This document shows positions 4,534 to 51,163 of a stretch of 62,206 nt of DNA, piece after piece; the first letter of the stretch is position 1; each line of letters opens with the position of its first letter. Under the pieces are notes generated by a model. It had not been told where the DNA came from, ran no database searches, and was given only the letters and a program-made list of their open reading frames with translations. Where the stretch lies: assembly GCA_964457685.1 (NCBI GenBank), contig CAYWFS010000005.1:1-62206 (forward strand). The letters are read 5' to 3'. The translations under genes and the position numbers were made by a program. Source of the DNA: an uncultured Ruminococcus sp. Its GTDB lineage: Bacteria; Bacillota; Clostridia; Oscillospirales; CAG-272.

Positions 4534-6059
4534 AAATGAAATACACAATTGGTATTGACGTTGGTACATCGGGAACAAAAACCGTGTTGTTCGATACACT
4601 CGGAAAAAAGCTTGCTTCAAGTACGGTGGAATATCCCATGTATCAGCCGCAGAACGGTTGGGCAGAGCAGAATCCGACAGACTGGAAAAATGCGGCAATC
4701 GAAACCATCCGTAATGTGATAAGCAGCTCTGGAATAGACAAAAACGATGTTGTCGGAGTCGGAATTACGGGACAGATGCACGGTCTTGTAATGCTTGACG
4801 AGATGAACGAGGTTCTTCGTCCGTCTATAATTTGGTGTGACCAGAGAACGGGAGAAGAATGCGAGGATATTGAACGCATTGTCGGCAGAGAAAAGCTGAT
4901 TCAAATTACGGCAAATCCCGCACTTACAGGCTTTACTGCTTCCAAAATAATGTGGGTTAAAAAGCATGAGCCTGAGATATACGAAAAATGCAGGCATATA
5001 CTTCTTCCGAAAGACTACATCAGATTTGTTTTGACGGGCGAGTACGCTACAGAGGTGTCTGACGCAGGCGGTATGCAGCTTCTCGACATAAAGAACAGAT
5101 GCTGGTCGGATGAGGTTCTGAATGCACTTGAAATAAACAAGGAACTTCTCGGAAAGGTATACGAATCCCCCGAAATTACGGGATATATCACACCCGAAGC
5201 TGCCGAAAAATGCGGTCTTGCAGTCGGTACTCCCGTTGTCGGAGGTGCAGGAGATAATGCGGCGGCGGCAGTCGGAGAGGGAGTTGTAACAGACGGTCAG
5301 GCATTCACAACTATAGGAACAAGCGGAGTTGTATTTGCTCACACAGATAAGCCCGAAATAGATATGGGTGGCAGAGTACACACATTCTGCTGTGCGGTTC
5401 CGGGTGCATGGCACGTCATGGGAGTAACTCAGGCGGCAGGACTTTCGCTTAGATGGCTTCGAGATACTGTATGCACGGATGAAGTCAACGAAAGTGCAAA
5501 GCTCGACTGCGACCCGTATGTTATAATGGATAAGGAAGCAGAGGGTTCGGTAATAGGTGCGAACAGACTGCTCTATCTTCCTTACCTCATGGGTGAACGT
5601 ACACCTCACCTTGATCCGAACGCAAGAGGTGCATTTATCGGACTTTCCGCTATGCATACAAGGGGAGATATGATTCGTTCACTGCTCGAGGGAGTGTGCT
5701 ATTCTCTCAACGACTGTCTCAGTGTGCTGAATGAGATGAATATTCATCCGGAAAGCATGAAGATATGCGGAGGAGGCGGAAAAAGCAAGTTGTGGAGAAA
5801 AATGCTCGCCGATGTGTACGGTATTCCCGTTACAACCGTGGAGTCTGACGAAGGACCTGCATTTGGTGCCGCAATTCTCGCAATGGTCGGGGCAGGAGTG
5901 TATCCCTCTGTTAAAGAAGCGTGTGATGCTGTCGTTCATGTCAAGGAAACTACCGAATGCGACATGAAGGCACATGAAGAATATAATAAATTCTACGGCA
6001 TATACAAGGGTCTGTATTCACATCTGAAAGAGGATTACAGAGCGTTGTCTCAGCTTTAA
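4530..6059 (+). CDS. xylB: Xylulokinase (FGGY family)
   Basis: 509 aa with an N-terminal GIDVGTSGTK and a C-terminal GGGGKSKLWRKMLADVYG. The ATGA overlap with the upstream gene suggests translational coupling. An alternative ATG is at 4536. Confidence 0.93.
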   Translation: MKMKYTIGIDVGTSGTKTVLFDTLGKKLASSTVEYPMYQPQNGWAEQNPTDWKNAAIETIRNVISSSGIDKNDVVGVGITGQMHGLVMLDEMNEVLRPSIIWCDQRTGEECEDIERIVGREKLIQITANPALTGFTASKIMWVKKHEPEIYEKCRHILLPKDYIRFVLTGEYATEVSDAGGMQLLDIKNRCWSDEVLNALEINKELLGKVYESPEITGYITPEAAEKCGLAVGTPVVGGAGDNAAAAVGEGVVTDGQAFTTIGTSGVVFAHTDKPEIDMGGRVHTFCCAVPGAWHVMGVTQAAGLSLRWLRDTVCTDEVNESAKLDCDPYVIMDKEAEGSVIGANRLLYLPYLMGERTPHLDPNARGAFIGLSAMHTRGDMIRSLLEGVCYSLNDCLSVLNEMNIHPESMKICGGGGKSKLWRKMLADVYGIPVTTVESDEGPAFGAAILAMVGAGVYPSVKEACDAVVHVKETTECDMKAHEEYNKFYGIYKGLYSHLKEDYRALSQL

Positions 6060-9374: not shown

Positions 9375-10160
9375 TTATGAGCCTGTTCCTTTGAAATGGC
9401 GAACTCCTATCTTCCATATAATCATACACGGAATAAGGAATATAACCGAGGAGATAGGTAAAAGCATATACATAACGCTGTCAACTCTGCCGAGGAGAAA
9501 CAAGAGAGGATAATACTGTACAGTTGCAATAGGAATTATAAAAGTATAGAATTTCAAAATCTTTTTTCCGTATATCGAAAACGGATACACACCGAACTCT
9601 CTTGTGCCGTCTGTGAAGATATTCATGAACTCCAGTCCGTCGGTCGAGAAGAAGCATATCGAAGCATAAATGACGAAAAGTCCCGCAAACAATATAACTC
9701 CGCCGAGAATCATAAGTATAAGCGTTACTATCCTTGCTATGTTCCATTCGATTCCGCTTTGAGGAAGAACTACACAAAGAACAACAAGTGCCTGTAAAAA
9801 GCGTCCGATTCGTGAGAACTCTATTCTTGAGCCGATTATCTGTAAAATCAGATTCCGAGGTCTTGTGAGCATTCTTTCAAATTCGCCGTTTGAAATCATT
9901 CGGGGGAATGTGTCAAAACCTCTGAAAAAGCATTCTGCAACAGAAAACGAAATCAGAATCGTGCTATAGCAAACAAGCACTTCACGAACATTGAAGCCTC
10001 CGACGCTGTGAAAACGATTCATCAGAAGTATTATCGATATAAATGCCGCAAAAGATGTCAGAAATTGTCCAAAGGCAGTCATAAGAAACGAAGCCTTGTA
10101 TTGCATGGCACTTCTCAGGTGGATGCTGAAATATTTGAGATATAATTTTATTCCGTTCAT
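9375..10160 (-). CDS. ABC-2 family transporter permease
   Basis: 261 aa with about 6 TM segments. It is the last gene of a 3-gene ABC operon, with near-abutting junctions. Confidence 0.75.
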   Translation of the reverse strand: MNGIKLYLKYFSIHLRSAMQYKASFLMTAFGQFLTSFAAFISIILLMNRFHSVGGFNVREVLVCYSTILISFSVAECFFRGFDTFPRMISNGEFERMLTRPRNLILQIIGSRIEFSRIGRFLQALVVLCVVLPQSGIEWNIARIVTLILMILGGVILFAGLFVIYASICFFSTDGLEFMNIFTDGTREFGVYPFSIYGKKILKFYTFIIPIATVQYYPLLFLLGRVDSVMYMLLPISSVIFLIPCMIIWKIGVRHFKGTGS

Positions 10161-10161
10161 G

Positions 10162-10965
10162 TCAGCCTCCCTGTACGACTATCTTTTTTAAAGATATATT
10201 GAGCCATATTTTACCGACAATCAGCATAACGGCACACCAGAATATCTGAAGCAGGAAGAATATCCACATTTCACTTCCGCTAATATTTCCGCTGTATACT
10301 CTGAACGGAAGATTTTCCATCGCCCCGAACGGAGAAAACTCGAGAAAACGTCTCATAGCATCAGGCATAAATGTCATAGGAACGAGAGCACCGCTGAGAA
10401 AATCAACGAGATTCACGCAGATTAGCTTTACGCCTTTTGAATTAATGGTGTTGCACGACATAATATAAACGAGCATTGTGTATGAGATAACGCAGACAGC
10501 TGACAAAAACATCGAGAAAAGGAATACAACGGCGTTCTCGAAGCTGTGCGGTAACGTCATTCCGTAAGGATAGGGAAGTAATGCCGCAACAATAAGAATC
10601 GGCATACATCTGAGTGCGGCTCTCGAAAGTCTGGACGAAAAGCCACGCATGAACCACATGGAGTAAAGATCTACGGGACGTGCAAGCTCATATGCGATAT
10701 TTCCGTTTTCTATCATATCGAGTATTTCGCCCTCAAACTGCCATGAGTTGAAAAGCGAAAGAAAAGCCTGTCTAAGCCATATGTAGACAGAAAGCTGTGA
10801 AAACTCCATCGGAAAGCTTGACGGATTTGATTCGTATAATGCCTTATATAAGAGAATGTTCAGAAATCCCCACGCAAACTGAGTCGAGATTCCTGCGATT
10901 GCGGCGGCTCTGTACTGGAGACCATTCAAAAACCGCATTCTGAAAAGCGAAAGATATTTTTTCAT
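10162..10965 (-). CDS. ABC-2 family transporter permease
   Basis: 267 aa and polytopic. It overlaps the ATPase gene by 4 nt. Confidence 0.75.
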   Translation of the reverse strand: MKKYLSLFRMRFLNGLQYRAAAIAGISTQFAWGFLNILLYKALYESNPSSFPMEFSQLSVYIWLRQAFLSLFNSWQFEGEILDMIENGNIAYELARPVDLYSMWFMRGFSSRLSRAALRCMPILIVAALLPYPYGMTLPHSFENAVVFLFSMFLSAVCVISYTMLVYIMSCNTINSKGVKLICVNLVDFLSGALVPMTFMPDAMRRFLEFSPFGAMENLPFRVYSGNISGSEMWIFFLLQIFWCAVMLIVGKIWLNISLKKIVVQGG

Positions 10966-11936
10966 ATGTCAAACTCCTTGTAGAGAGAGACAACAAGCTC
11001 CTCCGCACTTGTTCCTTCAACTGACAGGTCGGATATTTCCGCTTTTTTCGATATATACTCGATTGCGGCGGAGATACTAAGGACTGATATATCCACCGTA
11101 CAGATTGCGTGCATTGGAGAGGGACGGCTTACAGTCATTCCTTGACATTCAACTACTTCGCCTGAGGAATATTCAAGCTTTATTCGTCTCTTTGAAGAGC
11201 GTTTGGCTTTAAGTTCATCGAGTTTTCCGTCAAGAAGTATTTTTCCGTCCCCTATCAGAAGTATTCGATTTGTAAGAGCTTCTATATCCTGCATATCGTG
11301 CGTGGTAAGGATAACGGTCGTTCCATGCTCACGGTTCAGCTTTTTTACAAACTCACGAACCGCTATTTTCGAGACCGCGTCAAGACCGATAGTCGGCTCA
11401 TCAAGGAAAAGAACCGACGGAGAATGAAGCAGGGAGGCGGCAATTTCACATCGCATTCGCTGACCGAGGGAGAGCTGTCTTGTAGGAGTTTTCAGTATTT
11501 CCTCGATTTTCAGTGAAGAAGTAAGCTCATCGAGATTGCTTTTGTATGTTACGTCATCTATTTTGTATATGTCACGAAGCAATTCAAACGAATCAATGAC
11601 GGGAACATCCCACCAAAGCTGTGAACGCTGACCGAACACTACACCGATTCTCGAAACGTGTCGAGTTCTGTCTTTCCACGGAGTCAAGCCGTTTATGACG
11701 CATTTTCCGCTGTCGGGGGTCAAGATTCCGCTCATTATCTTTATCGTACTGCTCTTTCCCGCACCGTTCGGACCGATATAGCCGACCATTTCTCCGTCAT
11801 CTATTTTGAAAGAAACATCGGACAGTGCGTTTACCGTTGTGTATTCTCTTTTGAAGAACGCTCGTATAGCTTCATTCATACCGGAATTTCTTTTTGACAC
11901 ACGGAATGTTTTGTTTATGCCTTCAAGCTCGATCAT
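10962..11936 (-). CDS. ABC transporter ATP-binding protein
   Basis: 324 aa. Walker A GPNGAGKSS, signature LSLGQRMR and Walker B LFLDEPT are present, plus a C-terminal extra domain. Confidence 0.9.
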   Translation of the reverse strand: MIELEGINKTFRVSKRNSGMNEAIRAFFKREYTTVNALSDVSFKIDDGEMVGYIGPNGAGKSSTIKIMSGILTPDSGKCVINGLTPWKDRTRHVSRIGVVFGQRSQLWWDVPVIDSFELLRDIYKIDDVTYKSNLDELTSSLKIEEILKTPTRQLSLGQRMRCEIAASLLHSPSVLFLDEPTIGLDAVSKIAVREFVKKLNREHGTTVILTTHDMQDIEALTNRILLIGDGKILLDGKLDELKAKRSSKRRIKLEYSSGEVVECQGMTVSRPSPMHAICTVDISVLSISAAIEYISKKAEISDLSVEGTSAEELVVSLYKEFDI

Positions 11937-11973: not shown

Positions 11974-12002
11974 ATTATATCACAGTGAATGAATATTGTC
12001 AA
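11974..12002 (-). promoter_or_regulatory. Sigma-A type promoter of the ABC-2 operon (TTGACA-17-TATAAT)
   Basis: Minus strand reads TTGACAatattcattcactgtgaTATAAT. It is a perfect consensus about 38 nt upstream of the ATPase ATG. Confidence 0.7.
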
Positions 12003-12033: not shown

Positions 12034-12080
12034 AAAAAATGACCTCGCAGAGTCTGAGTGAAATTAAACTCTGTGAGGTC
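12034..12080 (-). terminator. Intrinsic terminator of the AMP-ligase gene
   Basis: Minus strand reads GACCTCACAGAGT, a loop, ACTCTGCGAGGTC and then ATTTTTT. It starts 8 nt after the stop codon. Confidence 0.8.
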
Positions 12081-12088
12081 GATTTAAT

Positions 12089-13723
12089 TTATCTTGTTGT
12101 TTGAGCTTCTACAAGTGATACACCGCAGTAAATCTCTCTGAGCTTCGGTTTTTCTATCTTTCCTGTGGGATTACGGGGAACAGTTGCAAAAATCACCTTT
12201 TTCGGACGCTTGTAACGGGGAAGTGCAAGGCAGAACTCGTTGATTTCTTCTTCGGTTGCATTCACTTCGGGTTTCAGCTCGATTATTGCCGCCGCAATTT
12301 CGCCGAGTCTTTCATCGGGGAGACCGATTACTGCAACATCCTTGATTTTTTCATTCTGTCTGAGAAAATCTTCAATCTGAACCGGGTAGAGGTTTTCGCC
12401 GCCTGTGATTATAACGTCTTTTTTGCGGTCTACAAGGTATATAAAGCCATCGCTGTCACGTTTAGCCATGTCGCCCGTATAGAGCCAGCCGTTTTTGAGT
12501 ATCTCGTTTGTAGCTTCTTCGTTTTTGTAGTAGCATTTCATGACACCGGGACCCTTTACGATAAGCTCGCCGACTTCTTCGGTATCACAGCTGTGACCAT
12601 CGGGTGCAACTATATCTGCATCCCAGAGATAACCGGGAACACCTATAGCACCAACCTTGTCGATATTATCTACGCCGAGATGCACGCAACCGGGTCCTAT
12701 GGATTCGGATAAACCGTAGTTTGTATCATATTTGTGGTTCGGGAATACCGCTTTCCAACGCTTGATAAGAGACGGCGGAACAGGCTGTGCTCCGATGTGC
12801 ATAAGTCTCCACTGGGATATTCTGTAATTTTCGAGGTTGATATCGCCTCTTTCGATAGCGTCAAGTATATCCTGAGCCCACGGCACGAGAAGCCATACTA
12901 TTGTAGCTTTTTCTTCCGAAACGGCACGAAGAATCCACTCGGGGGAAACTCCCTTTAAAATTACCGCACGGCTGCCACTGAGAAGACTTCCGAACCAGTG
13001 CATCTTTGCTCCCGTATGATAAAGCGGAGGGATACAAAGGAACACGTCATCTCTTGTCTGACCGTGATGATTCTGTTCTGTACGACATGAATTGATAAGA
13101 GAACGGTGAGCGTGCAGAATAGCTTTGGGGAAGCCGGTAGTACCCGAGGAGAAATATATTGCGGCATCGTCATCCTCTTCAAGTTCAACGGCGGGAGCTA
13201 CGGTGGAGCAGTATGTAACAAGCTTGTTGTAGTTGCTTGCAAAATCGGGAGTGTTGTCACCGACAAAGAAGTAGTTCTTCACGAGAGGCATATCGAGGAA
13301 TACGTTTGATACACGTTCTGTAAATTCGGGACCGAAAACAAGAACGGACACATCAGCAAGCTCACAGCAGTATTTGATTTCGTCGGAGGAGTAGCGATAG
13401 TTCATGGGAACGGCAAGAGCACCCGTTTTCAGAATACCGAAGTAAATCGGGAGCCATTCAATGCAGTTCATGAGAAGGATAGCTACCTTGTCACCCTTTT
13501 CAACACCACGAGTCTTGAGAAGATTTGCGAAGCAGTTTGCCTTTGTGTCAAATTCTCTCCATGTCATTTCACGGCGATATTTTCCACCGGGAGCCGTTTC
13601 AATAAGAGAATATTCACGCCACGGAAGATTTACATCGGGCTGATTAGCGGGATTTATTTCAACAAGAGCCACATCATCGGGATACAGCTTTGCGTTTTTT
13701 TCGAGAAGATCGGTAATTACCAT
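12089..13723 (-). CDS. AMP-forming acyl-CoA synthetase/ligase (class I adenylate-forming, FadD-like)
   Basis: Motifs YFSSGTTGFPKA, NYGLSES, YTGDMAKRDSDGFIYLVDRKKDVIITGGENLYP and PTGKIEKPKL are present. The start is set to the ATG at 13723 (MVITDLL...), 8 nt after GGAGA. The track start at 13786 is a TTG inside the T-box terminator loop. Confidence 0.85.
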   Translation of the reverse strand: MVITDLLEKNAKLYPDDVALVEINPANQPDVNLPWREYSLIETAPGGKYRREMTWREFDTKANCFANLLKTRGVEKGDKVAILLMNCIEWLPIYFGILKTGALAVPMNYRYSSDEIKYCCELADVSVLVFGPEFTERVSNVFLDMPLVKNYFFVGDNTPDFASNYNKLVTYCSTVAPAVELEEDDDAAIYFSSGTTGFPKAILHAHRSLINSCRTEQNHHGQTRDDVFLCIPPLYHTGAKMHWFGSLLSGSRAVILKGVSPEWILRAVSEEKATIVWLLVPWAQDILDAIERGDINLENYRISQWRLMHIGAQPVPPSLIKRWKAVFPNHKYDTNYGLSESIGPGCVHLGVDNIDKVGAIGVPGYLWDADIVAPDGHSCDTEEVGELIVKGPGVMKCYYKNEEATNEILKNGWLYTGDMAKRDSDGFIYLVDRKKDVIITGGENLYPVQIEDFLRQNEKIKDVAVIGLPDERLGEIAAAIIELKPEVNATEEEINEFCLALPRYKRPKKVIFATVPRNPTGKIEKPKLREIYCGVSLVEAQTTR

Positions 13724-13761
13724 TGTTTTTGTCTCCATTTGTTGAGTATATATTTCGGCGG

Positions 13762-14035
13762 AAAACAAAAAGTCCCCTGCCGACAAAACAGCAGAGGACG
13801 GATATACCGTGTTACCACCTCAGTTTACCATACCCTCACGAGTACAGCCTCAGTAGGCACTGATTATGCCCTGATATTATAACGTATATCAAACGTCACA
13901 GCCTACGCAGAAAAAATCCTTCGGTGTGCTGCTACGGAAATGTATTCACGCATACGGTATTCATTGGCTTGCACCGACCGCCAACTCTCTGAGAAATCGA
14001 ACACGCTACTCTTTTTCCATCATCGCATTTCAATA
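13762..14035 (-). promoter_or_regulatory. T-box riboswitch leader with specifier UAC (tyrosine)
   Basis: Minus strand shows a GA/K-turn base (AUGCGAUGAUGGAAA...UUUCCGUAGCA), an AGAGA box and distal loop (CAGAGAGUUGGCGGUCGGUGCAAGCCAA), and the specifier loop GAAUACA (UAC = 13942-13944). It also has the T-box GAGGUGGUAACACGG (about 13807-13821) and a competing terminator GUCCUCUGCUG/CGGCAGGGGAC plus U-tract (13762-13799). Confidence 0.85.
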
Positions 14036-14042
14036 CACAGAT

Positions 14043-14071
14043 ATAATATCACTTTTTGTTTGATTTGTCAA
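14043..14071 (-). promoter_or_regulatory. Promoter of the T-box leader (TTGACA-17-TATTAT)
   Basis: Minus strand reads TTGACAaatcaaacaaaaagtgaTATTAT. It starts about 12 nt after the hisS stop codon. Confidence 0.7.
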
Positions 14072-14082
14072 GGGATTTTGCA

Positions 14083-15315
14083 TTATTCGCCGAAATACTT
14101 GGCTTCTTCCTGCGACATTACACGACAACCGCAGAATCCGCTTTCCTCGAGCTTTGAGAACAGCTTTCCGAGCTTTTTAACGGATTTATAAAGAGCAACA
14201 TCGTATTCGCCTCTCATGGAATCCGCAAGCTTGAGTGCGTCTGTGAAATTGTCATCGTCATAGATAACGGCAAATTTCTTTTTCTGAGTGGGAATCTGAT
14301 ATTTCTGTTCGAGAAGAATAGCACAAAGTCTTTCAAATCCGATTGAGAATCCTACAGCGGGAATGCTTTCGCCGAGGAACTTACCGATGAGGTTGTCATA
14401 GCGACCGCCACCGCCGATAGCACCCTTGAAGTCGGGACTGGAAATCTCGAAAACAGTGCCTGTGTAGTAGCCCTGACCACGAACAAGAGTCATGTCGTAG
14501 GTTACTTCAAATCCGTCTGCGAGAGAGTTGGAAGCATCCATGATACGTCTGAGGTTGTCGATACAATCGAGCTTTCCGCAGAGTTTTTCGGCATCATCGA
14601 GAGTGAAAGGTGTTACTCCGATTGCGGAGATAAGCTTTTCTACAACAGCGGAGTCAAAGCCCTTTTCGAGAAGCTCTGCTTTTACGCCGTCGAATCCGAT
14701 TTTGTCGAGCTTGTCGAGGGAAATACAAACGGAATCGCAGGCATTTTCTTCAAATCCCGCACCCATGATTATAGCCTTGAGAAGTCTTCTGTCGTTGATT
14801 CTTATGCCGAATCTTGAGAAGCCTATGTTGTGGAGAGCCTTTGCGGTGGTTGTGATAAGCTCTACTTCTGCTGTCCATGAATCCGAACCGATTATATCAA
14901 TGTCGCACTGGTAGAACTCACGCATTCTGCCTTTCTGAGGACGTTCCGCACGATAAACTCTGTCTATCTGAATGACCTTAAAGGGATTTGCAAGCTTTGC
15001 ACGATTATTTGCATAGTAACGTGTGAGGGGGAGTGTAAGGTCATAGCGAAGACCCATGTCGGCAATATCCTTTTCGTTGCCGGAAGAAATAGCCTCCTCG
15101 AGCTTTTCACCACGCTTCATTATCTTAAAAATAAGATTGAGGTTTTCGCCGCCGTCGCTTTTGTCGAGGTTTTCTATGTCTTCGATAATGGGAGTTGAGA
15201 TTCTTTCAAATCCGCAGGAGCGGTATGTTTCAAGGATACTGCTTTGCAGATAGTCTCTGATAAGCACCTCGCCCGGAAGAAAATCCGAGGTTCCTTTTAC
15301 GGGAGTAATTTTCAT
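14083..15315 (-). CDS. hisS: Histidine--tRNA ligase
   Basis: 410 aa class II aaRS. N-terminal GTSDFLP, motif 2 region REFYQCDIDIIG and motif 3 GGGGRYDNLIGKF are present. Confidence 0.85.
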   Translation of the reverse strand: MKITPVKGTSDFLPGEVLIRDYLQSSILETYRSCGFERISTPIIEDIENLDKSDGGENLNLIFKIMKRGEKLEEAISSGNEKDIADMGLRYDLTLPLTRYYANNRAKLANPFKVIQIDRVYRAERPQKGRMREFYQCDIDIIGSDSWTAEVELITTTAKALHNIGFSRFGIRINDRRLLKAIIMGAGFEENACDSVCISLDKLDKIGFDGVKAELLEKGFDSAVVEKLISAIGVTPFTLDDAEKLCGKLDCIDNLRRIMDASNSLADGFEVTYDMTLVRGQGYYTGTVFEISSPDFKGAIGGGGRYDNLIGKFLGESIPAVGFSIGFERLCAILLEQKYQIPTQKKKFAVIYDDDNFTDALKLADSMRGEYDVALYKSVKKLGKLFSKLEESGFCGCRVMSQEEAKYFGE

Positions 15316-43655: not shown

Positions 43656-44087
43656 TTATTTCAGTATATCCGCAAGATACAGAATAGCTTCACGGTATCC
43701 GTCAAGTCCGTGTCCTGCTATTGTTTTTGTGGCGGCGAGAGAAACATACGAAAATTGTCGGAAGGACTCTCTTTGGCTTATGTCGGAGATGTGTACCTCA
43801 ACGGTAGGTATTCCTACGGCTTTGAGTGCGTCAAGGATTGCAACGCTTGTGTGGGTATATGCCGCAGGATTTATTACGATTCCGTCGAATTTTCCGTAGG
43901 CAGACTGTATCTTGTCAACAATATCGCCCTCGTGATTTGACTGAAAATGCTCGTATTTGATTCCGTTTTCGGTGCAAGTGTCGTCAATCAGGCTGAGAAG
44001 TGCGTTATAGTCCTGTTTTCCGTAAATATCAGGCTCCCGTATACCAAGCATATTGATGTTGGGACCGTTAATTATCAGTAGAGTCAT
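43656..44087 (-). CDS. aroQ: Type II 3-dehydroquinate dehydratase
   Basis: 143 aa with LIINGPNINMLGIREPDIYG, FQSNHEG and INPAAYTHTS. Confidence 0.92.
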   Translation of the reverse strand: MTLLIINGPNINMLGIREPDIYGKQDYNALLSLIDDTCTENGIKYEHFQSNHEGDIVDKIQSAYGKFDGIVINPAAYTHTSVAILDALKAVGIPTVEVHISDISQRESFRQFSYVSLAATKTIAGHGLDGYREAILYLADILK

Positions 44088-45333
44088 TTTTACCCCTTTT
44101 CACTACGGAGATAATTCCGTCTGAATTACAGCTCGGACTTCCGTTCATCTCGAATATAATGTCTGCGGCTTTTTCGTACATTGGCAGACGTTTTTTGTAC
44201 AGCTCGGATAAATCGTTTGCCTGAGATACGGGTCTTCCGTCTTTCGGCAGTGAAGCAATGTCACGTTTCATAAACACAACGGTGCTGTTCTGTCTGAGCA
44301 GGGGAATATTGTTTTCGCGAACCACTACACCACCGCCGCAGGAAATAACAAGACCCGATTTCTTCGAGTATTCTTCAAGTACCTTATGCTCAAGCTCACG
44401 GAATTTGTCCTCTCCATGGTTCTTGAATATCTCGGGAATGGAAACACCGCTTTGTTTTACTATTTCTTCGTCAAGGTCAACAAATTCACGGTTCAGTTTT
44501 TGTGCAATGAGCTGTCCGTTGGTGGTTTTTCCGACTCCGGGCATACCGATGAGCATGATATTCTTCATGTCAAACTCTATAATATCCTTGATTTGGTCAA
44601 TCAGAGAGTTTTCAAGAGCTTGACCGATGAAAAATTCAGCCGCCGCTTTTGCCTGAGCAACCAGCATACAAAGTCCCGAGATGCACGGAATATTGTTTTC
44701 TTCGGCTTCAAGTATAATTGCGGTTTTCGATGGGTTGTATATCATATCGACAACGCCCGACAGCTTGGGGAAATGAACGAGTGACACAGGAGACATTCCG
44801 TTGTTCGGGTACATACCGACAGGGGTTGTGTTAATGAGAACATCGCAGTCGGAGTGGCGGTCGATATTTTCGTAATTGTTTTCACCGCTTCTTGAAATTA
44901 TAACTATTTCAGAGGCTCCTCTGTCAGCGGCAACAGTTCTTGCTGTCATGGAGGCTCCACCGCTTCCGAGAATCAGCACTTTTTTTCCGCATACATCGAT
45001 ATTTCCTTTGTCAAGCATATAGGAAAAGCCGTAGTAGTCGGTGTTGTCTCCCTTGAGTCGTCCATCGGGCAGATGAGTTATAGTGTTAACGGAACCGATT
45101 CGCAAGGCTTCGGGGGAAATTACATTGAGAAACTGCATGACGGTTTTTTTATACGGAATCGTCACGTTTATCGAGTCGTAGTTGTCGGATTTCAAGAATG
45201 TGCCGACCTCGTTTTCGTCAAGCTCGATAAGTCTGTATTCGTAATCGCAAAGGTGTGAGTGTATCAGCGGAGAATAGCTGTGACCGAGAGGTTTTCCTAT
45301 AAGTCCGCATTTCATTTCGCTTGTTTTCTTCAT
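44068..45333 (-). CDS. Bifunctional shikimate dehydrogenase / shikimate kinase
   Basis: The N-terminal part is AroE (GLIGKPLGHSYSPLIH, Rossmann LGSGGASMTAR). The C-terminal part is AroK (Walker A GMPGVGKTT). The start is set to the ATG at 45333; another candidate is at 45315. Confidence 0.85.
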   Translation of the reverse strand: MKKTSEMKCGLIGKPLGHSYSPLIHSHLCDYEYRLIELDENEVGTFLKSDNYDSINVTIPYKKTVMQFLNVISPEALRIGSVNTITHLPDGRLKGDNTDYYGFSYMLDKGNIDVCGKKVLILGSGGASMTARTVAADRGASEIVIISRSGENNYENIDRHSDCDVLINTTPVGMYPNNGMSPVSLVHFPKLSGVVDMIYNPSKTAIILEAEENNIPCISGLCMLVAQAKAAAEFFIGQALENSLIDQIKDIIEFDMKNIMLIGMPGVGKTTNGQLIAQKLNREFVDLDEEIVKQSGVSIPEIFKNHGEDKFRELEHKVLEEYSKKSGLVISCGGGVVVRENNIPLLRQNSTVVFMKRDIASLPKDGRPVSQANDLSELYKKRLPMYEKAADIIFEMNGSPSCNSDGIISVVKRGKNDSTDN

Positions 45334-45343
45334 AGCTGTAACC

Positions 45344-46435
45344 TTATTTTTCCATTTCTCCGCTGTCGAGAAGTGCGTCATATATGGCAATGGCAAGTGC
45401 GGCTTCAATTATCGGAACAGCTCTCGGAACTATGCAGGGATCATGACGACCGCCGACTGTTATCTTTGTGTTCTTTCCCGTAGAGAGGTCAACCGTGTCC
45501 TGTTCATGACCGATAGACGGGGTGGGTTTTATAGCACAGCGGAATATGAGTGGCATACCGTTTGTCATTCCGCCGAGAATACCGCCGCTGTTGTTGCTTT
45601 TTGTCTTTACCGTGTCGCCGTCATAGTAGAACGGGTCGTTGTTTTCGGAGCCGTACATATCGCTTGAAGCAAATCCCGCACCGAACTCTATTCCCTTGAC
45701 CGCAGGAACGGAGAACACGATTGAAGAAATTCTCGACTCCATACCGCAGAAAATATGCTCGCCGAGACCAACGGGAAGTCCGATTGCAGCACATTCTATC
45801 ACTCCTCCGACGGAATCCTGCTGCATTCTTGCACTTTCGATGACCTTTTCCATTTTCTCTCCGGCACTTTCGTTTAAAACAGGGAGAGCGTGAGAGAGAA
45901 TATCATCGAAATCATTACGGCAAACGTCTGTCGGATCGAAGCGATAGTCGAGTGCAGAGCCTATTGATTCAATATGAGCGGCAATATAAATTCCACTCTT
46001 TTCAAGCTCCTCCTTTAATATACCGCCTATCGCACATATGGGAGCGGTAAGTCTTCCCGAAAAATGGCCTCCACCTCGCAGATCAGCCGTTTTACCGGAC
46101 TTTACCATGGCAGGATAATCCGCATGGGACGGACGCGGAGTTTGAGAAAGCTCGGAGTAATCAGATGAACGAGCATTTTCGTTTTTTATAACGATGTTTA
46201 TCTCATTTCCGTTTGTCGTAAGTCCGTCAAATCCGCTTACCAATATAGGGGTGTCCGTTTCCTTGCGTGAGGTTGTAAGCTTGCTTTGACCCGGAGCCCG
46301 TCTCTGCATAAATGCCGAAAGCTTGTCCGTGTCTACTGTGATTCCGGCAGGAATACCGCTTGCTTTAACGCCTATTTCGGTATCGTGTGAGCCGCCGTAG
46401 ACTGAAATCTTTATATTTTTGCCGTAAGAGGTCAT
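45344..46435 (-). CDS. aroC: Chorismate synthase
   Basis: The start is set to the ATG at 46435 (MTSYGKNIKISVYGGSH). RPSHADY and GGRHDPC motifs are present. Confidence 0.92.
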   Translation of the reverse strand: MTSYGKNIKISVYGGSHDTEIGVKASGIPAGITVDTDKLSAFMQRRAPGQSKLTTSRKETDTPILVSGFDGLTTNGNEINIVIKNENARSSDYSELSQTPRPSHADYPAMVKSGKTADLRGGGHFSGRLTAPICAIGGILKEELEKSGIYIAAHIESIGSALDYRFDPTDVCRNDFDDILSHALPVLNESAGEKMEKVIESARMQQDSVGGVIECAAIGLPVGLGEHIFCGMESRISSIVFSVPAVKGIEFGAGFASSDMYGSENNDPFYYDGDTVKTKSNNSGGILGGMTNGMPLIFRCAIKPTPSIGHEQDTVDLSTGKNTKITVGGRHDPCIVPRAVPIIEAALAIAIYDALLDSGEMEK

Positions 46436-46452
46436 GTTTGTCTCCTTATCGT

Positions 46453-47709
46453 TTATACGCTTTTTTCGGTAGTGTTTATACATAATTTTCCGAAATCGTC
46501 AAAGAATCCCGGGTATGATTTTGACACCGCCTCGCATCCCTTTATGGTGACGGGAGATGTAGTGAGAAGTGAAGCAACGGCGGCAGACATAACTATTCTG
46601 TGGTCGTTGTACGAGTCAACCGTTATTCCGTCACGCTTGCTTATTCCGCCGATTACCGTAATATCATCTCCCACTACTTCAATATTTCCGCCGAGGGAAC
46701 GTATCATCTCACAAACGGACTCAATTCTGTCACTTTCTTTAAGCCGCAGTCTGCCGCAGTTTTTTATCACAGTTTTTCCCTCTGCCGCCATTGCAACAAC
46801 GCAAAGTACGGGAACGAGGTCGGGAATATTTGATGCGTCTGTCGTGATTCCGCGGAGAGTGCCTTTTTTTACGCTAACGCAGTCTCCGAAAACCGTAACC
46901 TCAGCACCGAACTGACGCAGAAGCTCGACTATTGCACTGTCGCCTTGAGTTGAATTTATATTAAGCCCCGATACGGTAATCTCGCCGTTTCCGATAGCAC
47001 CAAGAGAAAGCATGAACGCCGCATTTGACCAGTCTCCTTCGACTTTCAAACTTTCGGGGGAAACATAGCTTCCTCTTATATGATATGTGTTTTCGCTTTC
47101 CGTGACCTTTACTCCGAACTTTTCAAGAACTTGTTCTGTAAGCGTGATGTACGGCTTTGATTCTACCTTTCCCGTCAGCGTTATCGAGCTTTCGTCTTTA
47201 AGATGTGGAAGAGACAGCATCAGTCCTGTAGTAAACTGAGATGAAACGGAGCCATCGAGAGTATATTCTCCCGAGCTTATCTTTCCCGATATTGACAGCG
47301 GATGATTTTTTATTACCGCACCGTGACGCTCAAGCTCATCGGACAACGGACTGAGAGGGCGAGAGGAAAGCTTACCCTCAGTGATAAATTCGGCATCTAT
47401 TCCAAGCACGGACGCAAGAGGTAGCATGAATCTGAGTGTGGAGCCTGATTCGCCGACATAAAGCACGGCATTTTTCGGAGTCTTTTTTATTGGATATACT
47501 GTGTATCCGTTATCCGTGCAGTCAATTTCCGCTCCGAGAGAACGCAGGCACGATACCGTAGCGTCTATATCCCTGCTTGAACGTGAACAGAGTATGTGAG
47601 TCGGTTTTTCCGAAAGTGCGGCACATATCAATGCTCTGTGTGCATACGATTTTGACGGGATAGCATCTGTTTTACCGCACGGCATGGGGGAGAGAAGTGT
47701 TATTTCCAT
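46453..47709 (-). CDS. aroA: 3-phosphoshikimate 1-carboxyvinyltransferase (EPSP synthase)
   Basis: 418 aa with PSKSYAHRALI, GESGSTLRF and LKESDRI motifs. Confidence 0.92.
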   Translation of the reverse strand: MEITLLSPMPCGKTDAIPSKSYAHRALICAALSEKPTHILCSRSSRDIDATVSCLRSLGAEIDCTDNGYTVYPIKKTPKNAVLYVGESGSTLRFMLPLASVLGIDAEFITEGKLSSRPLSPLSDELERHGAVIKNHPLSISGKISSGEYTLDGSVSSQFTTGLMLSLPHLKDESSITLTGKVESKPYITLTEQVLEKFGVKVTESENTYHIRGSYVSPESLKVEGDWSNAAFMLSLGAIGNGEITVSGLNINSTQGDSAIVELLRQFGAEVTVFGDCVSVKKGTLRGITTDASNIPDLVPVLCVVAMAAEGKTVIKNCGRLRLKESDRIESVCEMIRSLGGNIEVVGDDITVIGGISKRDGITVDSYNDHRIVMSAAVASLLTTSPVTIKGCEAVSKSYPGFFDDFGKLCINTTEKSV

Positions 47710-48773
47710 TTGAATTCACCGAGTATAAAGCTTTTTATGTCAGAAAAATCAATCGTCATAAGCTCACATTTGCCTATCTCATGCGGAACCACGAGGGTTA
47801 TTTTTTCGCCCGATTTTTTCTTATCTCTGGAGGAGACCGAAATCAGGCTGTCGAGGTCGTAATTTCTGTATATGAACGGGTCAAGTGAGTATTTACGAAG
47901 AAGCTTTTCAAGTCGCACAAGAGTTTCTTCACTGCACATACCGTTTTTGCAGGCACATTCGGTTATAAAATACATTCCCGACGCTACAGCATGACCGTGA
48001 GATACCGTGAAATCCGACAAGGCTTCTATACTGTGTCCGAAGGTGTGACCGAGATTCAGCTTTTGACGTTCTCCGCAGTCGAGAAAATCACGGCTTACCA
48101 CGTCACGCTTGTCTTTTACGCATTCCTCGATTATTTCTTCAATGTCATCGAAAAGGCTGTGTGAGTTTTCGAGAAGCTCAAACAGGGAAGTGTTTCCGAG
48201 GACACCGTACTTTATAACCTCAGCCATTCCGTCGGCGATAAAGCTGTCCGAAAGTGTTGCGAGAAGAGAGGGATCGCTCAAAACAAACGATGGCTCATGA
48301 AATGCTCCGACAAGATTTTTTCCTTCGGGAATATCGACAGCGGTTTTTCCTCCGACAGATGAATCCACCATTGCCAGAATAGAGGTCGGAACGGAAACAT
48401 AGCGTATACCTCTCAGATATACCGATGAAGCGAAGCCGGCAATGTCTCCCGTAACTCCTCCGCCGAGTGCAGCTATGCAGTCGTGTCTTGTGAGACCGTT
48501 TGCCGCCGCATGACGAAGTATTTCGCCGAGAGTTGTCAGATTTTTGCTTTGCTCTCCGCTTTTGAAAACGAAGTCATTCGCAAGTGAAAATCCCGATTTC
48601 AAAAGGCTTTTTCTTACGGTATCTCCGTAAAGTGCATGAACATTGTCGTCCGCAACTATGAGAAGCAGGGAGTCGTTTGAGCCGAGTGCGGAGCGAATAT
48701 ATTCACCGAAGTTTTCGATGGAGTTTTTTTCTATAACTATGTCGTAGCTGCTTGCTTTAACAGTTTTCTTCAT
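47700..48773 (-). CDS. aroB: 3-dehydroquinate synthase
   Basis: 357 aa with GGGVTGDIAGFASS and the metal-site context LNLGHTFGHSIE. Confidence 0.92.
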   Translation of the reverse strand: MKKTVKASSYDIVIEKNSIENFGEYIRSALGSNDSLLLIVADDNVHALYGDTVRKSLLKSGFSLANDFVFKSGEQSKNLTTLGEILRHAAANGLTRHDCIAALGGGVTGDIAGFASSVYLRGIRYVSVPTSILAMVDSSVGGKTAVDIPEGKNLVGAFHEPSFVLSDPSLLATLSDSFIADGMAEVIKYGVLGNTSLFELLENSHSLFDDIEEIIEECVKDKRDVVSRDFLDCGERQKLNLGHTFGHSIEALSDFTVSHGHAVASGMYFITECACKNGMCSEETLVRLEKLLRKYSLDPFIYRNYDLDSLISVSSRDKKKSGEKITLVVPHEIGKCELMTIDFSDIKSFILGEFKWK

Positions 48774-48782
48774 ATTAATAAA

Positions 48783-49613
48783 TCAGCCGTCGGCCTTTTC
48801 CTTTGCTTCACAGCCCTCTTTGAGAAGTGCTTCAAGCCGTGAATCATCTCCCGAGTCGAGAGCGTTTTTGTAGTCCGTGAGAGCGTTTATTATAAGCTCA
48901 AGCTCTGCAGAAAGGTTGTCACGGTTCTCATGGAAAAGTTCCGTCCACATTTTTACGTCAAGCTGTGCGACTCTGGTAAGGTCACGATAGCTTCCGGCGG
49001 AGATTCCGTTGTGGTTCTGAGCTCTCGGACTCTTAACGAATGCGTTAGATACCACATGAGCAAGCTGGGATGTGTATGCAATCATCTCATCGTGTGCTTC
49101 TGCCGTGGTGAACGTGAATCTTGCAAAGCCTGCCGGAGAAAGAGCCTTTTTTGCACGGTCGAAAAGTGCTATATCATCTCGGCACGGCGGAACGAGAACC
49201 ATTGTCTCATCCTTGAATAAGTCGCTTCTTGAATTCTTTATTCCTCCGAGATGTGAGCCTGCCATCGGGTGACCGCCCACAAATGTAAATCCGTGCTTTT
49301 CGGCAAGAGAGAATCCGACTGAGCAGATATATCTCTTTGTTCCGCAGAGGTCTATGACAAGCGTGGAGGGGAGAATATTTTCTGCGTTGTTTTCAAGCCA
49401 TTCTGCGGCGTTTTTCGGTGTTACCGCAAGAAGAATAAGGTCGCATGAGCCTATATTTTCGTGTGTTAAGGTTTCGTCTACTATGTTGTTGAGCTTAGTC
49501 CAGCTGAGTACGACATTGCTTATATCGTAGCCGAGGACTGTGCATTCGCTTTCCTTAAACGCACGAGCCATTGAACCGCCTATGAGACCGAGTCCTATAA
49601 TTCCGACAGTCAT
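48783..49613 (-). CDS. tyrA: Prephenate dehydrogenase
   Basis: 276 aa with the N-terminal Rossmann IIGLGLIGGSMA and GGHPMAG. There is no ACT domain. Confidence 0.88.
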   Translation of the reverse strand: MTVGIIGLGLIGGSMARAFKESECTVLGYDISNVVLSWTKLNNIVDETLTHENIGSCDLILLAVTPKNAAEWLENNAENILPSTLVIDLCGTKRYICSVGFSLAEKHGFTFVGGHPMAGSHLGGIKNSRSDLFKDETMVLVPPCRDDIALFDRAKKALSPAGFARFTFTTAEAHDEMIAYTSQLAHVVSNAFVKSPRAQNHNGISAGSYRDLTRVAQLDVKMWTELFHENRDNLSAELELIINALTDYKNALDSGDDSRLEALLKEGCEAKEKADG

Positions 49614-50632
49614 GCCTGTACCTCATCTTCCTTGATGGCGTTGAGAACACGTCTTGTTGACTTCATAACATCATCGAACTGCTCGGGTGTGAGTGACTGA
49701 GCACCGTCGCAAAGGGCAGCACGAGGGTTGTTGTGTACCTCTATCATAACACCGTCAGCACCGCAAGCAGCAGCCGCAAGTGCCATAGGCTTTACAAGAC
49801 GGGACATACCTGTTGCATGGCTGGGGTCTACTATGATCGGGAGGTGGGTAAGCTCATGAAGCATGGGAACGGCGGAAAGGTCGAGTGTGTTTCTTGTGTA
49901 GGTCTCGAAGGTTCTTACACCTCTTTCGCAAAGGATTACGTTTTCGTTTCCGCCTGCCATGATGTATTCCGCACTCATGAGAAGCTCTTTTAAGGTGTTC
50001 GCAAGTCCTCTCTTTAAGAGAATGGGCTTTCTTGTTTTTCCAAGCTCTTTAAGAAGCTCGAAGTTCTGCATATTTCTTGCACCAACCTGAATAACGTCTA
50101 CGTTCTCGAAAAGGGGAAGGTGATTGGCATTCATAATTTCAGTAACGATCGGAAGTCCCGTTTCTCTCTTTGCCTCAAGAAGAAGCTCGATACCGTCCGC
50201 ACGAAGTCCCTGGAAATCGTAGGGAGATGTACGAGGCTTGAACGCACCGCCTCTGAGCATGGTAGCACCGGAAGCCTTTACCGCACGGGCAACCTCAAGT
50301 ATCTGAGCCTCATTTTCAACAGAGCAGGGTCCTGCAATAACTGCAAAAATATTTCCGCCTACGGTAGTCTTTCCCGAAACGTCGATAACGGAATTATCGG
50401 GATGGAATTTACGGTTTGCACTCTTGAACGGGTCTGAAATTCTTTTTACGCTTTCCACAATATCAAGTCCTGTCAGCATTTCCGAGTCTATTTTCGATGT
50501 GTCGCCGATTAATCCGACTACTGTCTGAAATTCGCCGTTATAAACGTGAACTCCGACTCCCTGAGCCTTTATCCAGTCGCAGAAGCTGTCTATCTGTTTT
50601 TGTGTAACTCCGTTTTTAAGAACTGCAATCAT
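49610..50632 (-). CDS. aroF: 3-deoxy-7-phosphoheptulonate (DAHP) synthase, type I-beta with an N-terminal ferredoxin-like regulatory domain
   Basis: 340 aa with the KPRTSPYDFQGL motif. An N-terminal extension of about 70 aa precedes the TIM barrel. Confidence 0.9.
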   Translation of the reverse strand: MIAVLKNGVTQKQIDSFCDWIKAQGVGVHVYNGEFQTVVGLIGDTSKIDSEMLTGLDIVESVKRISDPFKSANRKFHPDNSVIDVSGKTTVGGNIFAVIAGPCSVENEAQILEVARAVKASGATMLRGGAFKPRTSPYDFQGLRADGIELLLEAKRETGLPIVTEIMNANHLPLFENVDVIQVGARNMQNFELLKELGKTRKPILLKRGLANTLKELLMSAEYIMAGGNENVILCERGVRTFETYTRNTLDLSAVPMLHELTHLPIIVDPSHATGMSRLVKPMALAAAACGADGVMIEVHNNPRAALCDGAQSLTPEQFDDVMKSTRRVLNAIKEDEVQA

Positions 50633-50689
50633 TTCTCTTTATTCCTTTTCGTAATATTTGTAGATTTTTTAAAGCAGGGAGGTGATGAT

Positions 50690-50881
50690 ATAAAGAAAAC
50701 GGGCTGTCCAGTGTTAATACTGAAAGCCCGTTTTTAATATAATCTTAACTATAATTCAAAAACAAAATTTCGGCACAAACACTCTTACTTTCTACGGGTG
50801 GTAAAATAGTAAGAGTAATAAAAGAAGTATTCAGCTGCCGCAAAAATGTTTCTCATTACGGTAATTCCTTTTCTTTAAGAT
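50690..50881 (-). promoter_or_regulatory. Ribosome-mediated transcription attenuator of the aro operon (leader ORF plus helices 1:2, 2:3 and 3:4)
   Basis: Helix 1:2 pairs ACUCUUACU (50808-50816) with AGUAAGAGU (50781-50789). Helix 2:3 is the antiterminator, pairing AGUGUUUGUGCCGAAA (50768-50783) with UUUCAGUAUUAACACU (50710-50725). Helix 3:4 is a 12-bp terminator CGGGCUUUCAGU/ACUGGA(C)AGCCCG plus UUUUCUUUAU (50690-50730). Confidence 0.7.
50785..50856 (-). CDS. Aromatic-rich leader peptide MRNIFAAAEYFFYYSYYFTTRRK
   Basis: I translated this by hand; it is too short for the ORF track. ATG at 50856 and TAA at 50785-50787. It has 5 Tyr and 4 Phe in 23 codons, with 8 aromatics in a 9-codon run. 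AAGGA lies 9 nt upstream, and the ATG is about 25 nt from the predicted TSS. Confidence 0.7.
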   Translation of the reverse strand: MRNIFAAAEYFFYYSYYFTTRRK

Positions 50882-50887
50882 GGCTTA

Positions 50888-50916
50888 ATTGTAGCACACG
50901 TTTTTTTGTTTGTCAA
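50888..50916 (-). promoter_or_regulatory. Promoter of the aro operon leader (TTGACA-17-TACAAT)
   Basis: Minus strand reads TTGACAaacaaaaaaacgtgtgcTACAAT. Confidence 0.7.
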
Positions 50917-51163
50917 TATGTATACGGCGATTTTTTATTCATTCGCTGTAGATTCGGCAGTATTGTTGTGTTTTCGTGGTGTAAAAATGTCGTAAAATCA
51001 GTGATAATCACAACAAAAACACGATGAGATGGCGTAAAAATAATAAATTACGAACTTAAATAAAACAAAAAGATGTGCTTGTAATATCCCTTTGAATGTG
51101 ATAATATTATATACGATTATAAAATATTCATCAAAAACGAGCTTGCCCGAGGGGAGAGAAAAA

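Follow-up and report, generated by a model that had tools for sequence, protein, structure and literature searches.

We describe a T-box leader RNA with a tyrosine specifier that precedes a gene for an AMP-forming acyl-CoA ligase in a 62,206-nt stretch of DNA from an uncultured Ruminococcus sp. (contig CAYWFS010000005.1; the whole stretch of 62 kb is called the window below). The window almost certainly contains a functional tyrosine T-box. The ligase most likely activates 4-hydroxyphenylacetate for reductive carboxylation to tyrosine; in many related genomes its orthologues adjoin iorA and iorB, the genes of indolepyruvate:ferredoxin oxidoreductase (IOR), and a gene for a second, PaaK-type ligase. 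The switch part of this proposal rests on sequence, structure and covariation, with a predicted response to tRNA-Tyr; from conserved operon structure together with the regulatory signal we infer the role of the ligase, its substrate and the direction of flux. The full mechanism, in which a T-box responding to tRNA-Tyr controls an arylacetate-CoA ligase of an IOR-linked route of tyrosine salvage, we regard as probable. New here are the T-box target and the function it implies; the T-box as such and the pathway chemistry are already known.

The Rfam covariance model RF00230 (gathering score 93) was used to search the window for T-boxes. The match runs from 14032 to 13791 on the minus strand, where all features of the leader and the ligase gene are located, and covers model positions 1-219 of 219 with 110.4 bits (E = 1.5e-23); no other Rfam match was found across the 62 kb. 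The earlier note on this DNA had called a T-box here, and the full-length match above the gathering score bears that out. The leader (13791..14032) comprises Stem I, the Stem II/IIA-B region, Stem III and the antiterminator. It is preceded by a sigma-70-type promoter (14043..14071), predicted earlier at this position, that has TTGACA and TATTAT separated by a 17-nt spacer, 11 of 12 matches to the consensus and a TG extension; the promoter begins 12 nt past the stop codon of hisS. Within Stem I we read the K-turn/GA motif GAUGA (14024-14020), the AGUA of the AGUA/GAA S-turn (14010-14007), AGAGA (13990-13986) and the distal loop (13982-13966); the GA/K-turn, AGAGA bulge and distal loop listed in the earlier note were recovered both in the sequence and in the covariance-model alignment. 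When 38 homologous leaders (the one in the window and 37 from orthologous loci) were aligned, AGAGA and the codon columns were conserved, and compensatory changes were seen in 37 of 41 predicted base pairs. The RNA is thus an ordinary class-I transcriptional T-box. Scans for tRNA genes found none in the window, and none for tRNA-Tyr among the fetched loci that they covered.

The 3′ part of the leader holds the expected pair of competing structures. In the antiterminator (13794..13821) a GAGG...CCUC helix and an inner helix ACGG/CCGU flank the bulge UGGUAAC; the segment AGGUGGUAAC at 13820-13811 includes UGGU at 13817-13814, complementary to the tRNA 3′ end ACCA, and GGUGGUA is invariant in 38/38 leaders. 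Facing it is an intrinsic terminator (13762..13799) with a stem of 11 pairs, seven of them G-C (13799-13772), a 6-nt loop and a T-run reaching 13762. Antiterminator (13821-13794) and terminator stem (13799-13772) are mutually exclusive, the 3′ arm of the one (CCGUCCUC) overlapping with the 5′ arm of the other. The 96-nt 3′ region of the leader folds with -39.5 kcal/mol (z = -4.1). Both the UGGU bulge and the competition with a terminator at 13762-13799, as proposed from the first reading of the sequence, are therefore well founded.

The covariance-model alignment places the specifier loop 3′ strand, GAA-UAC-A, at 13941..13947; the tyrosine codon UAC occupies 13944-13942 and is followed by the conserved purine A13941, exactly where the earlier note had them. 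Among the 38 leaders, alignment column 97 is U in all, column 98 is A in 36 and U in two, column 99 is C in all, and column 100, next after the codon, is a purine in 34. This amounts to 36 UAC (Tyr) and two UUC (Phe) specifiers, none for Trp; among the 37 orthologous T-boxes alone there are 35 UAC, two UUC and no non-aromatic specifier. In TBDB, UAC and UUC each make up 99% of the specifiers of Tyr and Phe T-boxes, respectively. The loop's 3′ end and the purine after the codon served as anchors for reading the specifiers; a reading from the alignment column alone was rejected, as it put two of the controls, asnS and ileS, one base out of register. The controls were four T-boxes of aminoacyl-tRNA synthetase genes in the same loci (GCC for alaS, AAC for asnS, AUC for ileS and UUC for pheS), and the identities of the genes were confirmed.

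The asnS and ileS controls have the layout GAA, one nucleotide, codon and purine (GAAU-AAC-A in locus L049, GAAU-AUC-A in locus L068), and the same spacing, applied blindly, gives ACA in the window. The specifiers could then be in the +1 register, as ACA, ACC or ACG (Thr) or UCA (Ser), in which case tRNA-Thr would be what the leader senses, and the ligase would be unrelated to aromatic amino acids; moreover, a G follows UACA in 7/38 leaders and could act as the post-codon purine. We give this register very little credence. The covariance model puts UAC-A at the codon and purine positions. U13940 can pair with A14014, lengthening the basal helix, so that the 7-nt strand GAAUACA remains; we take the glyQS loop GAAGGCA to have the same length and layout, as was also assumed in the earlier note. 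Leaders with an additional base (GAAAUACA, GAAUUACA) still have UACA abutting the helix. The +1 register would yield ACA in ∼29/38 leaders and ACU in none, unlike the usage recorded for Thr specifiers in TBDB (ACC 60%, ACU 25%, ACA 13%). Control of an operon for IOR and a PaaK-type ligase by Thr or Ser would also be metabolically senseless.

The gene behind the tyrosine T-box (12089..13723) encodes a protein of 544 aa; it starts with ATG and has a GGAG ribosome-binding site at 13737-13734. A longer open reading frame (ORF) of 565 aa with a TTG start was rejected as an over-extension, given that the ATG has the GGAG site and the shorter length fits the homologues. The protein matches Pfam domains AMP-binding (PF00501, 2.2e-70) and AMP-binding_C (PF13193, 2.6e-11) and carries the motifs SSGTTGFPKA (residues 192-201), YGLSES (336-341), YTGD (415-418), the DRKKD hinge (432-436) and PTGK (519-522), the last with the catalytic lysine of motif A10. 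With both domains and all core motifs, the predicted protein is a member of the ANL superfamily (class I adenylate-forming enzymes). Assignment to a curated family is a different matter: 108 NCBIfam models matched, and none of those listed exceeded its cut-off. The best, NF004837/PRK06187 (‘long-chain-fatty-acid-CoA ligase’), scored 405 bits vs the cut-off of 476, and the other 24 models listed were far under theirs. The earlier description of the enzyme as ‘FadD-like’ thus holds for superfamily resemblance, but not for membership in any curated ligase family. Neither is the protein of PaaK type, as it has PF13193 in place of AMP-binding_C_2 (PF14535), the domain which marks the ∼430-aa PaaK architecture (TIGR02155); still, it may work like PaaK, though outside that family. 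The nearest solved structures in PDB are FadD13, FadD5, feruloyl-CoA synthetase and several 4-coumarate ligases (E = 3e-72 and weaker). The substrate is not assignable from the sequence of the ligase alone, and ANL folds in general give no indication of the acyl substrate.

Such an assignment has to draw on the orthologues. GTDB genomes, one for each species, were searched by pattern scan; of the 595 relatives obtained, the best 80 loci (68-78% identity) were analysed. One locus, L078, is that of Sporomusa ovata DSM 2662 (NZ_CP146301.1, within 3051340-3064965). A leader HMM was built from 23 Rfam-confirmed leaders, i.e. that of the window and 22 orthologous ones that pass the Rfam gathering score with 97-140 bits, and was run with nhmmer on the 80 loci. 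A T-box linked to the ligase was found in 37 of these species-level loci; the question whether orthologous ligases also carry Tyr, Phe or Trp T-boxes is thus answered with 35 Tyr and two Phe cases. The T-box lies immediately 5′ of the ligase gene in 24 of the 37 loci and 5′ of a symporter-ligase gene pair in 13 (L002, L008, L020, L024, L030, L036, L037, L040, L057, L070, L071, L073 and L074; in three of them an amidohydrolase gene intervenes), where it sits ∼1.6-2.7 kb upstream of the ligase gene. No T-box in these 37 loci precedes only iorA or only paaK. In T-box-negative loci, nhmmer with the --max option returned only noise at E < 10; a separate Rfam scan of 15 loci at the gathering threshold found no T-box in 12 T-box-negative loci, L003 and L004, and one in L002.

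The ligase family forms >120 clusters at 76-91% identity in metagenomes of Oscillospiraceae and other Clostridia, and the T-box signal is conserved over at least two classes of Bacillota. Three additional distinct loci of closer relatives (L081, L082/L083 and L086; ligases 83-91% identical) carry the T-box and the ligase; in L081, a syntenic locus of a metagenome-assembled genome (MAG) and the closest relative, the ligase is 91% identical. In these relatives the unit follows hisS, a gene for a DUF6873 protein or radA. The presence of the T-box-ligase unit in unrelated neighborhoods of close relatives suggests that it moves as a module. The ligases of L084/L085 (76% identical) have no T-box. 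We also observed ligases of ∼70% identity, all of them without a T-box, in MAGs from outside the Firmicutes: L053 (Smithella), L072 (delta-proteobacterial), L054 (Chloroflexota) and L050 (a bin labeled Thermoguttaceae); in L053 and L072 a gene for an ACT-pair protein directly follows the ligase gene. Identity of this order between phyla hints at contamination of the bins or at horizontal transfer.

All ORFs of the 80 loci were clustered and the cluster representatives were annotated; adjacency of genes was determined by tblastn. The recurrent arrangement, all on the same strand, is Tyr T-box, sodium:solute symporter (SSF) gene in some loci, ligase gene, symporter gene in others, iorA, iorB, gene for a PaaK-type ligase and gene for an ACT-pair protein. 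For the adjacency of iorA, the count was limited to the 53 loci (26 of them T-box loci) whose sequence extends 3.5 kb or more downstream. The iorA-iorB pair adjoins the ligase gene on the same strand in 28 of the 53 and in 16 of the 26; an arylpyruvate:ferredoxin oxidoreductase, which the earlier note thought worth looking for elsewhere in the genome, thus turned up beside the orthologues, though not in the window itself. The iorAB clusters usually continue with the PaaK-type ligase and ACT protein genes. The family assignments are firm for IorA (726 vs the equivalog cut-off of 651, TIGR03336) and IorB (279 vs 230, NF005325); the PaaK-type ligase scores below its cut-off (522 vs 646, TIGR02155), yet has the PaaK domain architecture. 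The symporter (PF00474), whose best NCBIfam matches (PutP, PanF) fall well short of the cut-offs, adjoins the ligase gene in 37 of the 80 loci and would thus be a member of the same regulon. At least one partner gene adjoins the ligase gene in 56/80 loci and in 33/37 T-box loci. In every T-box locus the leader goes with the ligase gene, whether or not a symporter gene is present; IOR, PaaK and ACT genes would be optional extensions of the same transcript. Three minimal operons (L062, L029 and L024, the last also with a symporter gene) consist of T-box, ligase gene, iorA and iorB and have no paaK-type gene, thus suggesting that a ligase of the window type alone can supply IOR.

Two further elements were observed in these loci. 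In L057 (2935-3726), L071, L074 and L069, a gene for an Amidohydro_2 protein (PF04909) is located between the symporter and ligase genes of a Tyr-T-box operon; the Amidohydro_2 family includes reversible decarboxylases of hydroxy-aromatic acids. In L009, a cobalamin riboswitch (RF00174, 51.9 bits; 4548-4738) is situated ∼1.2 kb 5′ of a ligase-iorAB-paaK-ACT cluster that has no T-box; it probably regulates the intervening gene.

A T-box turns genes on when the cognate tRNA is uncharged, and IOR interconverts arylacetyl-CoA and arylpyruvate. From these two properties and the operon structure the following mechanism can be proposed. When tyrosine is scarce, uncharged tRNA-Tyr would pair with the leader at two sites, GUA anticodon to UAC specifier and free ACCA end to UGGU bulge. 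The antiterminator would thereby be stabilized, and RNA polymerase could transcribe past the terminator (13799-13762) and on into the ligase gene. In many species the co-regulated sodium:solute symporter would import an arylacetate such as 4-hydroxyphenylacetate. The ligase would attach CoA to the exogenous arylacetate, in the main 4-hydroxyphenylacetate; IOR would reductively carboxylate the resulting thioester to 4-hydroxyphenylpyruvate, and an aminotransferase would convert this to tyrosine. The earlier suggestion of a ligase that activates an aryl acid for tyrosine salvage by reductive carboxylation gains support from comparative genomics, namely from the iorAB neighbors, the aromatic specifiers and the occurrence of Tyr T-boxes on iorAB operons. 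The range of substrates it had named becomes narrower: since IOR uses arylacetyl-CoA, 4-hydroxyphenylacetate is favored, while arylpropionate and coumarate are disfavored.

The latter acids deserve a closer look, as feruloyl-CoA synthetase and 4-coumarate-CoA ligases are among the PDB relatives of the ligase (E = 5e-58 to 6e-51), and the ligase gene stands alone in the window and in several relatives. The enzyme might then act on another tyrosine-related acid, such as 3-(4-hydroxyphenyl)propionate, p-coumarate or 4-hydroxybenzoate, with no link to IOR. We consider this improbable: the sole recurrent enzymatic neighbors, IorA and IorB, use an arylacetyl-CoA thioester, and no hydratase, dehydratase or beta-oxidation genes recur beside the ligase gene in the 80 clustered loci. 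Nor is any route known from the CoA esters of those acids to tyrosine without radical dehydratases.

The direction of flux can be argued from the regulation as well as from the chemistry. IOR is reversible and serves degradation in fermenters (PMC13285125), so the ligase and IOR could run oxidatively in the fermentation of aromatic amino acids; or else, as the name of the best NCBIfam match would have it, a fatty-acid ligase could be found behind a relic T-box. Either version seems to us barely credible. As a T-box is on when its tRNA is uncharged, Tyr-T-box control would be compatible only with tyrosine supply, and induction by uncharged tRNA-Tyr would make no sense for genes that degrade tyrosine. 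AMP-forming ligases favor thioester synthesis, and an AMP-forming arylacetate-CoA ligase beside IOR was argued to indicate the biosynthetic direction for Bacteroides IOR with a PaaK-type ligase (PMC13285125); supply of the thioester by the ligase beside IOR likewise points to reductive carboxylation here. The match to the fatty-acid model stays under its cut-off, and the T-box, full in length, conserved and covarying, is retained in >40 loci, which does not look like a relic.

The two UUC leaders (L013:201-434 and L051:3040-3252) bear on how narrow the specificity may be. Their ligases share only 69% identity, and the nearest relatives of either are ligases that are UAC-linked or have no T-box (the nearest relative of the L051 ligase is UAC-linked); the single-base switches from UAC to UUC, as judged from these relationships, thus arose independently. 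When Phe-linked and Tyr-linked ligases were compared, no column was found where both Phe-linked proteins depart from the Tyr-linked consensus. Switches in two lineages without a shared substitution are what one would expect of an arylacetate-CoA ligase with broad specificity (for phenylacetate, 4-hydroxyphenylacetate and indoleacetate), charging of tRNA-Tyr being a proxy for a shortage of aromatic amino acids. Also, IOR accepts all three arylpyruvates, and the arylacetate ligases assayed in the same work accepted all three arylacetates (PMC13285125). On the other side of the balance, 36 of the 38 specifiers are for Tyr and none for Trp, and many operons keep a separate PaaK-type ligase, suggesting non-redundant specificities of the two enzymes. 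Broad specificity is, in our view, rather unlikely, although the least so among the alternatives to a ligase principally for 4-hydroxyphenylacetate.

Several observations weigh against salvage of 4-hydroxyphenylacetate to tyrosine as we propose it. The UUC cases agree no less well with a broad range of arylacetates than with a strict preference for 4-hydroxyphenylacetate. The nearest structures, ligases of fatty acids, ferulate and 4-coumarate, do not point to the substrate. Many operons already hold a PaaK-type arylacetate ligase, and any division of labor with the window-type ligase is conjectural. The T-box is missing, by nhmmer, in 43 of the 80 orthologous loci. In the window itself the downstream pathway is not visible: tblastn with the operon representatives found no iorA, iorB, paaK, ACT or SSF symporter gene, and the IOR genes must lie beyond the 62 kb. 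Finally, the window contains a complete shikimate/tyrosine operon, which makes the ligase route non-essential.

This operon (43656-50632, minus strand) has the order aroG-tyrA-aroB-aroA-aroC-aroEK-aroQ; it starts with the genes for DAHP synthase (aroG, 49610-50632) and prephenate dehydrogenase (tyrA, 48783-49613), continues with aroB, aroA, aroC and an aroE-aroK fusion, and ends with aroQ (43656-44087). The 459-nt gap upstream of it (50633-51091) has no T-box or other Rfam element, and a search of 50550-51150 for regulatory RNAs gave only sub-threshold chance matches. De novo tyrosine synthesis is thus present and is outside T-box control. By gene content the organism is not a tyrosine auxotroph; given the complete operon, the ligase route is a salvage supplement and not the sole source of tyrosine.

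The surroundings of the ligase gene show how far T-box control extends in the window. The ligase transcript ends in a terminator of its own (12034..12080; -20.9 kcal/mol, z = -5.1), a hairpin followed by UUUUUU. Directly downstream of this terminator is a promoter (11974-12002, minus strand) with 12/12 consensus matches and a TG extension, which belongs to an operon of an ABC-2-type transporter (9375-11936, minus strand) encoding an ATPase, a 267-aa protein without a family match and an ABC2_membrane_6 permease. Since this operon has its own promoter, the ligase gene is the only gene under the T-box of the window, as the earlier note had it, terminator included. On the other side, hisS (14083-15315; TIGR00442, 300 bits vs the cut-off of 287) is preceded by just 84 nt and, in the Rfam scan of the window, has no T-box; that the leader promoter starts directly after the hisS stop codon and that hisS has no T-box of its own had both been stated correctly.

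Among known systems, the leader resembles that of Bacillus subtilis tyrS, a class I transcriptional T-box of RF00230: both have the Stem I K-turn, the S-turn specifier loop, AGAGA and the distal loop, a UAC specifier, a UGGU bulge matching discriminator A, and competing antiterminator and terminator. The target is what differs. Here the T-box controls a CoA ligase of the ANL superfamily and not a gene for tRNA aminoacylation, canonical biosynthesis or the transport of amino acids; in other species it precedes an entire symporter-ligase-iorAB-paaK-ACT operon. Neither CoA ligases nor SSS-family transporters are among the T-box targets of Wels et al. 2008 (PMC2494555). In the searchable literature we found no T-box together with indolepyruvate and ferredoxin oxidoreductase, no relevant one together with phenylacetate, and no gene assigned as a 4-hydroxyphenylacetate-CoA ligase. 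Nor did we find there the ANL subfamily of the window ligase or the SSS symporter as T-box targets; they may be mentioned in Vitreschak et al. 2008 (RNA 14:717), RegPrecise or TBDB.

With regard to the pathway, orthologues of the window ligase lie inside iorAB-paaK(-ACT) clusters like those of methanogens and Bacteroides, in which an arylacetate, ATP and CoA are proposed to give arylacetyl-CoA and then, via IOR, arylpyruvate. Both the reductive carboxylation of aryl acids, in methanogens and rumen bacteria, and iorAB-paaK clusters have been described before; that rumen anaerobes carboxylate arylacetates reductively was reportedly established by physiological work in the 1960s. Unlike PaaK (PF14535, ∼435 aa), the window ligase belongs to a different ANL subfamily (PF00501 and PF13193, 544 aa), and unlike in the known clusters the window-type ligase, often alongside PaaK, bears a Tyr T-box and in the window does not stand beside iorAB. 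With Mycobacterium tuberculosis FadD13 and FadD5 and with plant and bacterial 4-coumarate and feruloyl-CoA ligases it shares the fold class and catalytic motifs; the similarity is at the superfamily level only, and context and regulation point to arylacetates instead. The HpdDEFG/HpdJ/HpdK system of Clostridium scatologenes (PMC13285125) has the same intermediates, 4-hydroxyphenylpyruvate, 4-hydroxyphenylacetyl-CoA and 4-hydroxyphenylacetate, but runs in the opposite direction, from tyrosine to 4-hydroxyphenylacetate, with a VOR-type oxidoreductase, a phosphotransacylase and an ATP-yielding kinase; the system proposed here would be AMP-forming, linked to IOR and induced by tyrosine shortage.

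Few signals visible in sequence alone link an orphan gene to a single amino acid; the specifier of a T-box is one of them. The Tyr specifier here coincides with independent operon evidence (iorAB, the PaaK-type ligase, the ACT protein and the symporter) and gives a testable function to a ligase family that is present in at least ∼600 species genomes and is annotated just as ‘acyl-CoA ligase’. In its widest form the proposal says that this ligase family and the SSS symporter may constitute the tyrosine-specific entry step of arylacetate reductive carboxylation, and that hundreds of gut and rumen Bacillota species may scavenge 4-hydroxyphenylacetate to tyrosine by means of a Tyr-T-box regulon; on this the scales seem to us evenly balanced. 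If true, it would provide a gene-level basis for tyrosine synthesis from 4-hydroxyphenylacetate in anaerobes, and CoA ligases and SSS transporters would join the known classes of T-box targets. 4-Hydroxyphenylacetate is the immediate precursor of p-cresol, a uraemic toxin; its scavenging would then constitute a microbial sink for this precursor, a cross-feeding sink that competes with p-cresol formation.

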